Part shown: positions 27,035 through 29,346 of the stretch, piece after piece | How positions within the stretch are numbered: the stretch's first letter is position 1 | How the letters are laid out: each line of letters starts with the position of its first letter | Assembly (NCBI GenBank): GCA_902518955.1 | Contig: CABYIR010000002.1 | Location: 48,891 to 112,890, forward strand | DNA: 64,000 bases | Reading direction: 5' to 3' | Source of the DNA: an uncultured Pelagibacteraceae bacterium | GTDB taxonomy: Bacteria; Pseudomonadota; Alphaproteobacteria; Pelagibacterales; AG-422-B15 | The notes under the pieces: model-generated | What the model saw: the letters and a program-made list of their open reading frames with translations, nothing else | Database searches by the model: none | What the model was told of the DNA's origin: nothing | Translations under genes and position numbers: made by a program

Positions 27035-27111
27035 TGGTGCGCTCGAGATGATTCGAACATCCGACCCCAGGATTAGGAATCCTGTGCTCTATCCAACTGA
27101 GCTACGAGCGC
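27035..27111 (-). tRNA. tRNA-Arg (anticodon CCT)
   Basis: The reverse complement reads GCGCTCG-TA-GCTCAGTTGGATAGAGC-A-CAGGA-TTCCTAA-TCCTG-...-TTCGAAT-...-CGAGCGC-A-CCA. 77 nt, cloverleaf intact. Confidence 0.92.
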
Positions 27112-27204
27112 AAAAAAAATAATTTTATTTATAAAAAAAATTTAATTTATTTTTTTAAAAATTTATAAAATAAAATTTTTTTTTTAAATTTTTTTTAAAA
27201 AAAA
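27112..27204. other. 93-nt tract made only of A and T
   Basis: Read directly: no G or C occurs between the tRNA-Arg 5' end (27111) and the C at 27205. The tract consists of phased A-runs and T-runs. Confidence 0.9.
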
Positions 27205-27300
27205 CTAATAAACATAACAAGTTAAGAAATTTAACTAATATTTAATTATAATTAAATTATTCTTTATATTTTGAATTTATTTTTGAAAATTTCCCAAAAA

Positions 27301-27329
27301 TTGACACTTTTTAATAAAAAGTTAAAAAT
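27301..27329 (+). promoter_or_regulatory. candidate sigma-70 promoter for the H1-like gene
   Basis: Perfect TTGACA at 27301-27306 and an A/T-rich -10-like hexamer (AAAAAT) 17 nt downstream. A GGGGAG Shine-Dalgarno sits at 27387-27392, 6 nt before the ATG. Confidence 0.35.
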
Positions 27330-27398
27330 TGTAACAGAACGAATCAATTTGATTCTATCTACTAACCTCTAACTAAACGCAAATGCGGGGAGAAAAAT

Positions 27399-27656
27399 AT
27401 GGAGGAACTAAAAATAATCTTTGCTAAAGCAAAGAAAAAAGCAAAGAAAAAAGCTGCACCGAAGAAAAGAAAAGCAGCTCCTAAGAAAAAGAAAAAAGCC
27501 GCTAAAAAAAAAAAAGCAGCTCCTAGGAGAAAAGCTAAAAGAAAAGCAGCTCCTAAGAAAAAGAAAAAAGCCGCTAAGAAAAAAAAGGCAGCTCCTAAAA
27601 GAAAAAACGCAGCTCCTAAGAAAAAGAAAAAAGCCGCTAAAAGAAAAAAAAGATAG
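27399..27656 (+). CDS. Lys/Ala/Pro-repeat histone-H1-like basic protein
   Basis: 85 aa, almost entirely AAPKK(K)/KKAAKKKK repeats after the N-terminus MEELKIIFAKAKKK. It has a strong SD, its own promoter-like element and a terminator. Confidence 0.7.
   Translation: MEELKIIFAKAKKKAKKKAAPKKRKAAPKKKKKAAKKKKAAPRRKAKRKAAPKKKKKAAKKKKAAPKRKNAAPKKKKKAAKRKKR
27474..27640 (+). repeat. intragenic tandem repeats in the H1-like gene
   Basis: An identical 32-nt unit, gcagctcctaagaaaaagaaaaaagccgctaa, starts at 27474, 27546 and 27609. Shorter gcagctcct copies lie in between. An A12 run spans 27504-27515. Confidence 0.85.
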
Positions 27657-27687: not shown

Positions 27688-27697
27688 GCGTCCTTAG

Positions 27698-28567
27698 TTA
27701 AATAGCTAAGGGCGCTTTTTTTATCTTATCTCGACCAAGTACTTTATCAACTTTTTTTATTGCGTTCTCTTCAGGTATATTTAGGCCCGCCATAACCTCT
27801 CTTAGAAATCGATCATAAGCTAGTTCAAATAGCTGTCTCTCACTATAAGATTGTTCAATCTGGTTATTTGCTCTATTTAAATCTCTCACTACTTCTGCGA
27901 TTTGTTCAATATCACCAGAGTTTATTTTTTGATCGTACTCTTGAGCTCTTCGACTCCACATTGTCCTTTTAATCCTTGCTTTTTGTGCGAGTATTTTCAT
28001 GACAGATTGTATCTTTGATGGCTTAGATACTTTACGAAGATTTAAAGCTTTCGCTTTTTCTACCGGAACCCTAAGTACAAGTTTATCTCTTATAAACTCA
28101 ATTACATACATCTCAAGGTTTTGACCAACAACTTCTCTTTTCTCAATATCAATTACACATCCTACGCCATGTGTTGGGTATACAACGTAGTCTTTTGTGC
28201 CAAATATCTTTTTAACTTTTTTTTCTTTGATTGCTTTAATCTCAAGTACTTTTTTTACTTTTTTAGCTTGGTAATGAGATGGATTGATAAGACGATTATT
28301 TACTTTTTTCTCAGAAGGTTTTGAAGCGATTGGAAGCTTTGATTTCGATGATGGCTTAGCATCTTTATTTTTTTTTAAAATTTTTTCTTTTACAATCTTT
28401 TTTTTCCTGACTTCCTTCTTTTTTTTTATTACAGAGGTTTTCTTTTTAGTTAACGCATCCTTCTTTTTTTTGATAATTCTCTTTTTCTTTTTTAGAACAA
28501 CATTTTTTTTTGAGGCTGATTTTTTTCTGACTGAAATAGATTTTTTCTTTAAATTTTTTTTCTTCAT
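27698..28567 (-). CDS. carD: CarD/CdnL-family RNAP-binding regulator with a lysine-rich N-terminal extension
   Basis: Residues from about 122 to 289 match CdnL ([15 protein letters not shown]..., [30 protein letters not shown]). By my count 49 of residues 1-120 are Lys. The ATG overlaps the fdxA stop as ATGA. Confidence 0.85.
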
Positions 28568-28908
28568 ATAATCCTTCTATTTTCTAGATTTTCTGTAAAA
28601 TATTTGTCAAATTTATTTTCTTCATTTTCAAAATTACTTGAGTCTGCTGGAGGTTCTTTTTTTTCAGTTATATTTGGCCACTCTTGAGAATATTTTTGAT
28701 TTATTTCACCCCACTTTCCATTTTCATCATCTGTATCAGCTATTATTGCATCAACGGGACATTCAGGCTCACAAACACCACAGTCTATACATTCATCCGG
28801 GTTAATTACCAGCATATTCTCACCTTCATAAAAACAATCAACTGGGCAAACCTCAACACAGTCTGTAAATTTACACTTAATACAATTTTCATTAACAAGA
28901 TATGTCAT
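28564..28908 (-). CDS. fdxA: ferredoxin (FdxA-type, two Fe-S cluster motifs)
   Basis: 114 aa with [18 protein letters not shown] and [12 protein letters not shown]. Confidence 0.9.
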
Positions 28909-28914
28909 TAAAAT

Positions 28915-29346
28915 TCAATATGTGTTTTTGATCTTGCCTACATCTGAGTCCTGAACATACAATAGGCCTGATATTTTTCTTATTAAGCTATTTTCATAGT
29001 CATCAATTCGCCCATCTGAAATTATAATTTTCCACATCATCTCAATAATTTCTAATTTCTCATCATAATCTAAGTTTTCATTAAGTTTTCTGGTGAACTG
29101 TTGAATATCATTTGAGTTATCATTGATTATTAGAGATAGTGAAAATAGCTCATCAAGCTTTTCATCTGTCAAATCAAAATATTTTTTCAGAAGGGACTTT
29201 ATTTTTTCCTTTTCAATATCATCAAAAACCCCATCATAAGCTGCAGTTTGAATTAAAAGTGCTGATATTGAGATTTGTAGAGTATCAAATGATGGATCTT
29301 CTATTTCTACTTTTGATTTAAAGGCTGATTTTAATTTTTCGAACAT
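28915..29346 (-). CDS. TerB-family protein
   Basis: 143 aa, helical, with TerB-like DG...D/E repeats (AAYDGVFDDIEKE, ISDGRIDDYE). Confidence 0.55.
   Translation of the reverse strand: MFEKLKSAFKSKVEIEDPSFDTLQISISALLIQTAAYDGVFDDIEKEKIKSLLKKYFDLTDEKLDELFSLSLIINDNSNDIQQFTRKLNENLDYDEKLEIIEMMWKIIISDGRIDDYENSLIRKISGLLYVQDSDVGKIKNTY

Follow-up and report, generated by a model that had tools for sequence, protein, structure and literature searches.

A polylysine N-terminal tail on the CdnL protein of SAR11 bacteria and basic extensions among alphaproteobacterial CdnLs

The cdnL gene and its product

The carD/cdnL gene considered here belongs to an uncultured Pelagibacteraceae bacterium of the SAR11 group and lies within a 64,000-nucleotide (nt) stretch of contig CABYIR010000002.1 (hereafter, the window; 31% G+C), where it occupies positions 27698..28567 of the minus strand and, according to the list of open reading frames (ORFs) and the translation, encodes a protein of 289 amino acids (aa) that starts with ATG and ends at the stop codon 27698-27700. 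[quoted passage not shown] The protein encoded in the window is 100% identical to P0001 and 97% identical to P0042, which is recorded in NCBI as a CarD family transcriptional regulator from a metagenome-assembled genome (MAG) of a Candidatus Pelagibacterales bacterium. Both domains of the family are readily recognised: the tudor-like RID (CarD_TRCF_RID, Pfam PF02559; 54.7 bits against a cutoff of 23, E 1.1e-14) covers residues 125-180 (28028..28195, minus strand), and the C-terminal helical domain CarD_C (PF21095; 80.3 bits against a cutoff of 23.1, E 1.1e-22) covers residues 189-273 (27749..28003, minus strand), after which the protein continues for 16 residues. Trp204 (27956-27958), inside CarD_C, is part of an MWSRRAQEY block that is invariant across the homologues and aligns with TWNRRYREY of Myxococcus xanthus CdnL and with the WSRR block of the solved chain 9m98_M (CarD). 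We take this residue to be the tryptophan described as conserved and functional across homologues, namely W85 in Mycobacterium tuberculosis and W91 in Rhodobacter sphaeroides (PMC7703639). Judged by its domains, the Trp block and the synteny with fdxA, the gene product is a CdnL orthologue, and it would be the housekeeping CdnL (CarD-family) RNAP-binding factor of this SAR11/Pelagibacterales bacterium. The only departure from the textbook architecture of the family is an N-terminal extension.

Composition and translation of the extension

The extension consists of residues 1-124, all of which precede the RID, the domain motif starting at residue 125; in the solved CarD/CdnL chains, the RID of the window protein aligns from residue 2-9 onward. 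Residues 1-120 include 49 Lys, 4 Arg and 7 Asp or Glu, residues 121-124 add no further Lys, and residues 1-124 together have a net charge of +46. The start codon of carD and the TGA stop codon of fdxA share the sequence ATGA (28564-28567; the junction reads ATTATATGAAGA), and codons 2-124 include no in-frame ATG, GTG or TTG. A preliminary description of this locus had reported a Lys-rich extension of about 120 residues with 49 Lys, followed by a CarD domain at about residue 125, the ATGA overlap and the lack of any ATG, GTG or TTG between the start and the domain, and had judged so long an open frame very unlikely to arise by chance. The extension is real and the recount, the Pfam boundary (which makes residue 125 exact), the junction sequence and the shuffles given below all agree with that account, with the single correction that residue 124 (28196), not residue 120 (28208), is the last of the extension.

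Translation was assessed at nine loci, namely the window and eight more that were fetched by exact-protein look-up. The tail frame is free of stop codons in all nine, whereas the other two same-strand frames have 8-20 stops each (10 and 9 in the window), and of 2000 mononucleotide shuffles of the tail none remains open (0.3% do for the short-tailed locus L084). Across the nine loci, the start ATG lies 0-39 nt 3' of an in-frame stop, and internal ATG, GTG or TTG codons are missing from the tail in six. A purine-rich, Shine-Dalgarno (SD)-like sequence is found upstream of the ATG, and a scan of the tail-coding DNA for promoter-like sites on the minus strand yielded none. Because the tail frame is open, its shuffles are not, an in-frame stop lies close upstream and, as discussed below, constraint is exerted at the level of codons, the extension should be considered translated, and the long form is almost certainly the actual product.

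The polylysine is not a general trait of this proteome: Lys accounts for 40% of the tail against a mean of 8.9% in the window ORFs of at least 150 aa, and the only other window ORF of comparable basicity is the small gene adjoining carD. The tail DNA (28196-28567, minus strand) uses 37 AAA and 13 AAG Lys codons, yet its longest A-run does not exceed 9 nt, the runs being interrupted by AAG and other codons. Ribosome sliding has been reported for longer poly(A) tracks, and the short runs in the tail DNA may reflect avoidance of long ones. A plus-strand ORF at 28284..28571 was rejected as a gene, its poly-Phe translation arising from the complement of the Lys codons.

A variable polylysine region and a conserved linker

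The approximately 120 close homologues of the window protein are, barring truncated ones, 255-293 aa long each and carry SAR11-type tails of 89-128 residues (median 114) with 40-44% Lys; over about 114 homologues, the Lys fraction stays at 0.40-0.43. Among these homologues, residues 1-77 (28337..28567, minus strand; 36 Lys out of 77), the polylysine tail proper, are hypervariable in both sequence and length, with an MKKK-like start throughout and with Lys interspersed with Ile, Val, Leu, Ser, Thr, Asn and Pro. The stretch that we denote the linker, residues 78-124 (28196..28336, minus strand), is a near-invariant segment with many invariant columns in 44 homologues, the variable positions including KP(S/P)(E/D), one (A/T), and (G/N)TKD at the end. 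For the linker (48 columns before the RID), the mean proportion of non-synonymous differences (pN) is 0.094, the corresponding synonymous value (pS) is 0.70 and the median ratio of non-synonymous to synonymous rates (dN/dS) is 0.064, compared with 0.078, 0.74 and 0.044, respectively, for the domain, the dN/dS values being approximate given the few loci and synonymous sites near saturation; in the alignable portion of the polylysine region, pN reaches 0.37. The linker has clearly accumulated much synonymous and little non-synonymous change, a pattern that points to constraint like that of the domain. The alignments show that selection maintains the charge or Lys content and the length of residues 1-77 but the sequence itself in residues 78-124. 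By the same comparison, the tail is not purely of low complexity, its last 47 or so residues being a near-invariant segment that is specific to SAR11: the linker motif is missing from the AT-rich, more distant P0153 and from the inspected GC-rich long forms and non-SAR11 homologues.

A charge-hydropathy plot assigns residues 1-77 to its disordered region. An AlphaFold2 run on a 44-sequence SAR11 alignment gave a mean predicted local distance difference test score (pLDDT) of 61.5 and a predicted template modelling score of 0.37; the tail and the linker are below a pLDDT of about 56, which we use as weak support for disorder alone. The model was of too poor quality to serve for a fold search or for docking of the linker on the domain, and the helix that it places at residues 96-111 of the linker is of low confidence. 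Recent slippage was rejected as the origin of the tail given that Tandem Repeats Finder (TRF) detected no substantial repeats in its DNA, whereas that of the adjoining small ORF is strongly periodic.

Basic tails on other alphaproteobacterial CdnLs

So is the extension an oddity of a single gene? An exhaustive, profile-free search with the domain only against 1.84 billion cluster representatives suggests otherwise. In most of the best 150 matches (47-60% domain identity), the domain starts at residue 60-385, and clearly basic, Ala/Lys/Pro/Ser/Thr-rich extensions (median 229 aa, 17% Lys, net charge +0.17 per residue) are found in at least 50 of the 127 matches with a locatable domain start, a figure that is possibly inflated because cluster representatives may favour long sequences. 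In a list without length bias, that of 90%-identity clusters obtained with P0153 as the query, 59 of the 118 listed proteins are extended by at least 30 aa and the other 59 have short N-termini. Among named genomes, the matched ones being non-SAR11, tails were found in Bradyrhizobium spp. (66-82 aa), Afipia (about 65 aa), a Rhodobiaceae MAG (199 aa), Parvibaculum (216 aa), Hyphomicrobiaceae (181-237 aa) and Methylovirgula (295 aa); many marine lineages, including Rhodospirillales-like MAGs, also have N-terminal CdnL tails. Short forms are found in Rhodobacterales, Roseibium, Xanthobacter, Methyloceanibacter, Phenylobacterium and Sneathiella.

In GC-rich genomes, the G+C content of third codon positions is 0.68-0.82 in the extension, a coding-type value, against 0.5-0.6 in the 300 nt upstream, and Lys-rich tails are present also at 55-68% G+C, contrary to mutational bias. 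The Lys fraction is inversely correlated with genome G+C (rho -0.77), a value that is descriptive given that two phylogenetic clusters confound it. In Bradyrhizobium and Afipia, the start (MPNKTAKTAAKA...) and the segment before the domain (PRVEEPKKVLTQRQGFKTNE) are conserved, and the Ala/Lys/Pro middle between them is variable. Gaps in the Bradyrhizobium tail alignment are all multiples of 3 but so are those in the 90 nt upstream, so that this feature does not discriminate. The SAR11 tail, with 40% Lys, 23% Ile, Val and Leu and a net charge of +0.37 per residue, is by these sequence measures the AT-rich and most charge-dense version of a widespread architecture, and basic N-terminal tails of variable length (30-385 aa) are, on the same evidence, a recurrent feature of alphaproteobacterial CdnLs. 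A second AT-rich marine lineage (30% G+C), the P0153 clade represented by loci L084 and L085, carries a 57-aa tail with 49% Lys and without the SAR11 linker motif; here, too, carD directly follows fdxA.

The view with which the preliminary description started, that alphaproteobacterial CdnLs normally measure 160-190 aa, holds for the studied and solved proteins (158-170 aa) but not for the listed homologues, about half of which are extended by 30-385 aa. Likewise, the N-terminal polybasic architecture that it considered distinct is indeed absent from the characterised and solved CarD and CdnL proteins but is peculiar neither to this gene nor to AT-rich genomes. As for the concern that such an extension might turn out to be common and already described, it is common in Alphaproteobacteria (59/118 listed) but was not described in the CdnL literature that we searched: N-terminal extensions are not mentioned there, 'histone H1' combined with CdnL yields only myxobacterial CarD, and the literature on SAR11 together with CarD contains no earlier description of the tail that we could find. 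H1-like N-terminal tails on a large fraction of alphaproteobacterial CdnLs are thus a previously undescribed feature.

In the course of this survey, typical alphaproteobacterial cdnL genes were encountered on contigs labelled Flavobacteriaceae, Bacteroidota, Actinomycetota, Bacillaceae and Nocardioides marinus (L011, L013, L026, L053 and L075), and L075 shares its N-terminus with the Leisingera locus L061, which comes from the same study. Such contigs probably reflect bin or assembly contamination, or wrong labels in public records.

Gene neighbourhood and the C-terminus

The neighbours of carD are genes for TerB and the fdxA-type ferredoxin, a small basic ORF, a tRNA gene and a tRNA_bind gene. 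The fdxA gene (28564..28908, minus strand; Fer4 and DUF3470 domains) overlaps the carD start with its stop codon, and the TerB-fdxA-carD order (28564-29346 in the window, minus strand) is kept in L086 and in the SAR11-type loci of sufficient length (L081-L083, L087, L088 and L090). In SAR11, the fdxA-cdnL spacer is short (0-29 nt) or replaced by a 4-nt overlap, which implies a single operon, possibly with translational coupling; in L086, the spacer measures 416 nt. The 5' intergenic region of cdnL in Alphaproteobacteria has a median length of 312 nt (PMC5324124). The idea that the tail is a captured 5' untranslated region of this kind was discarded, given that L086 combines the 416-nt spacer with a 121-aa tail.

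At the other end of the gene, none of the 120 SAR11-type CdnLs (P0001-P0120; window 27698-27712) terminates with AA or VA, compared with 101 of 149 other homologues; the SAR11-type proteins end with ...LAI, ...ALN or ...PSI. In Caulobacter, the C-terminal AA is a ClpXP-dependent degron that sets CdnL levels (PMC5324124), and, because AA/VA is absent from its C-termini, SAR11 appears to have lost this mode of CdnL control. A G+C-rich hairpin over the carD stop codon (27688..27715; 12-bp stem followed by a T run), detected in a scan for terminator-like structures, is probably a bidirectional terminator shared by two convergent genes.

The gene convergent with carD (27399-27656, plus strand) encodes an 85-aa protein composed of repeats of the AAPKKKKKAAKKKK type (MEELKIIFAKAKKKAKKKAAPKK...). 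Its signals are an SD-like GGGAGA, a TTGACA-17-AAAAAT sequence (27301-27329) that resembles a promoter and, after the stop codon, a hairpin with a T-run of its own; TRF detects strong tandem repetition in its DNA, the periods being 21, 42, 72 and 93 nt. Counterparts of 76-88 aa, with the same conserved N-terminus and in the same position, are found in the SAR11 loci L082, L083, L087, L088 and L090, and searches of Pfam and NCBIfam with the 85-aa protein yielded zero matches. The product has the look of a small, basic, H1-like protein, one that retains GC-rich Ala and Pro codons despite the 31% G+C of the genome. Farther along, tRNA-Arg(CCU) (27035-27111, minus strand) is separated from this small ORF by about 290 nt of nearly pure A/T, a long spacer for a streamlined genome; no Rfam family was found in the region 27035-27398 at gathering thresholds.

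A hypothesis on the function of the tail and its alternatives

What could such a tail do? In the scenario that we favour, CdnL is translated from the ATG that overlaps fdxA, so that the mature protein would bear the 124-residue N-terminal extension. Residues 1-77 would be a disordered polycation with a composition (about 40% Lys) and an approximate length that are under selection and a sequence that is free to vary, and residues 78-124 a conserved linker, probably partly helical, that connects the polycation to the RID and would either position the polycation or make a lineage-specific contact. The polycation, then, would bind duplex DNA non-specifically, by electrostatics, like the tails of histone H1 or the H1-like domain of Anaeromyxobacter CarD, and this binding would enrich CdnL at the nucleoid and provide further contacts with DNA near the promoter, beside the RNAP beta lobe to which the RID binds. 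Such added contacts might strengthen or prolong the stabilisation of the open promoter complex. That the tail is a disordered, non-specific polycationic DNA-binding arm is a proposal built on analogy to which we give roughly an even chance of being correct. The analogy itself, with the C-terminal HMGA-like or H1-like domain of myxobacterial CarD, had been drawn in the preliminary description and appears reasonable, the H1-like precedent being the Lys/Ala/Pro C-terminal domain of Anaeromyxobacter CarD, which confers essential DNA binding and is interchangeable with the HMGA domain of M. xanthus (PMC2919716). The tail may plausibly tether CdnL to DNA, and to AT-rich DNA in the version put forward in the preliminary description.

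Several considerations weigh against this proposal. Polylysine binds RNA, polyphosphate and acidic membranes as well as DNA. Neither the tail nor the linker has any match in Pfam, NCBIfam or PDB even at E<=10, the tail contains no AT-hook (including RGR) or SPKK motif, the dN/dS values are, as indicated above, approximate, and the supplement of the one SAR11 proteome paper that was searched is without a CarD entry. Furthermore, an N-terminal FLAG tag impairs CdnL in Caulobacter (PMC5324124), so that N-terminal additions are not automatically harmless.

Accordingly, other accounts have to be weighed against that of a DNA-binding arm. The translated tail could mostly bind RNA, such as nascent rRNA leaders or ribosomal material, or else drive condensation with RNAP and nucleic acids. 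Its composition (Lys with Ile, Val, Ser and Thr; +0.37 per residue) is as close to the extensions of ribosomal proteins as to H1 tails, CdnL is active at rRNA promoters (PMC5324124), and a DNA-specific motif was not found in the tail; however, the tail is also without an RNA-binding domain or motif, and the nearest precedent within the same protein family is one of DNA binding (PMC2919716), so that we regard this account as improbable. The same low probability attaches, in our estimate, to the notion that the polylysine is a tolerated low-complexity expansion without a specific function, which would have grown by slippage from the short basic N-terminus common to most CdnLs (MxxKKK...), with AT bias pushing it toward Lys. 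Such an origin would fit the extreme variability of the sequence and the length (dN/dS of about 0.37 in alignable columns; about 30 to 385 residues among lineages), the few Lys with which the short CdnL forms start and the dependence of the Lys fraction on genome G+C (rho -0.77), although this correlation is confounded by phylogeny. It is harder to reconcile with the retention of the tail, within narrow ranges of Lys content and length, in every SAR11-type homologue examined despite genome streamlining, with the absence of detectable tandem repeats from the DNA of the tail, in contrast to that of the neighbouring repeat gene, with Lys-rich tails at 55-68% G+C, where they run against mutational bias, and with the strong constraint on the adjoining linker.

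Less probable still is a role of the tail as an element of regulation or turnover, for instance as a handle that Lon or ClpAP would grip or as a target of Lys acylation, in place of the C-terminal AA degron recognised by ClpXP in Caulobacter. The contrast in the frequency of AA/VA ends (0/120 SAR11-type proteins vs 101/149 others) and the control of Caulobacter CdnL by the AA degron (PMC5324124) speak for such a replacement, but GC-rich long forms, for example P0122 (...KDAA) and P0125 (...KAA), hold both the tail and the C-terminal AA, so that the tail is not a simple substitute for the degron, and a degron motif was not identified in it. Finally, the main product might start at a non-canonical codon (ATT, ATC or ATA) just 5' of the RID, the long ORF being used rarely or never, a caveat that the preliminary description had already entered. 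In-frame ATT, ATC and ATA codons are indeed available at codons 110, 113 and 121. However, constraint at the protein level reaches at least 47 codons 5' of the domain, stops are avoided in a frame-specific manner over the whole tail in nine loci with the frame closing 0-39 nt 5' of the ATG, an SD-like purine-rich sequence precedes that ATG, and the scan found no promoter-like site on the minus strand within the tail-coding DNA. The codon constraint and the stop avoidance contradict an internal start, which we consider scarcely credible.

Beyond the DNA-binding arm itself, one can envisage a broader and rather doubtful extension of this hypothesis. N-terminal H1-like tails would make CdnL a DNA-binding, nucleoid-associated global activator in many Alphaproteobacteria, which would amount to inventing the myxobacterial CarD design a second time, independently and in inverted order; within SAR11, the tail and the conserved 85-aa AAPKK-repeat protein encoded beside it might partly replace transcription factors and nucleoid proteins thought to have been lost by streamlining, with the linker providing a new contact with RNAP or DNA.

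Mechanistic and structural work on CdnL has used short forms exclusively. If polycationic arms that bind DNA are indeed present on about half of the alphaproteobacterial CdnLs, the recruitment of this factor to promoters, its occupancy and its regulation may deviate substantially from the current model, and the organisms concerned include the most abundant heterotrophs of the ocean and the agronomically important Bradyrhizobium. According to one proposal, CdnL/CarD makes up, in Alphaproteobacteria, for the absence of the -7T base from promoters (PMC7703639). We consider the wider result, namely the undescribed H1-like N-terminal tails on many alphaproteobacterial CdnLs, to be more useful than an oddity of a single gene.

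Comparison with known systems

The RID, CarD_C and the Trp wedge block are common to the window protein and the CdnL/CarD proteins of Caulobacter crescentus, R. sphaeroides, M. xanthus, M. tuberculosis and Thermus thermophilus, and the fdxA-cdnL linkage of the window gene is typical of Alphaproteobacteria; in its domain, the window protein shares 50-60% identity with other CdnLs of this class. The solved CarD/CdnL chains in PDB are 158-170 aa long, with the domain starting at residue 2-9, and R. sphaeroides CarD has 169 aa (PMC7703639), whereas the window protein has 124 extra residues at its N-terminus. Unlike the usual alphaproteobacterial cdnL, which has a long 5' intergenic region (PMC5324124) and encodes a C-terminal AA/VA, the window gene has neither. 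CdnLs have been defined, in contrast to CarD, as standalone proteins that measure about 160-200 aa and in which a DNA-binding region cannot be identified (PMC2919716); the 289-aa window protein, with its 124-residue polybasic N-terminal extension, departs from this architecture while the orthology of its domains is intact.

The long-form CdnLs of other Alphaproteobacteria (Bradyrhizobium, Afipia and others) resemble those of SAR11 in layout, the start and the segment before the domain being conserved and the middle variable, but their tails are rich in Ala, Lys, Pro, Ser and Thr, whereas the SAR11 tail is of a Lys/Ile/Val type with a linker motif of its own. The C-terminal domain of histone H1 and the PAKKA-repeat tails of bacteria are, like the window tail, disordered, about 100 residues long, with about 40% Lys, and attached to a folded domain; the window tail differs from these in its small share of Ala and Pro and its abundance of beta-branched hydrophobic residues, and shows no sequence or profile similarity to them, so that the resemblance to histone H1, as judged from sequence, is compositional only. 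Other bacterial proteins with basic tails of the H1-like or PAKKA type are HupB, AlgP and Hc1. In the Ku protein of Mycobacterium smegmatis, the PAKKA repeats modulate DNA binding (PMC3553676).

The closest parallel is myxobacterial CarD (HMGA-like in M. xanthus, H1-like in Anaeromyxobacter dehalogenans), which likewise combines an RNAP-binding module with a basic, low-complexity, presumably DNA-binding region; the basic domain of Anaeromyxobacter CarD is rich in Lys, Ala and Pro, as are the tails of the GC-rich alphaproteobacterial CdnLs (PMC2919716). In myxobacterial CarD, however, the basic region is C-terminal and accompanied by an acidic stretch, with AT-hooks in M. xanthus, whereas the window tail is N-terminal and has neither AT-hooks nor an acidic region; moreover, myxobacterial CarD, a paralogue, acts together with CarG and extracytoplasmic function (ECF) sigma factors, whereas the window tail sits on the housekeeping CdnL orthologue. 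The window protein has no C-terminal HMGA-like or H1-like DNA-binding domain and, by its domain layout, falls outside the myxobacterial CarD group. By analogy, nevertheless, it may well work like CarD, pairing an RNAP-binding module with a basic DNA-binding region.

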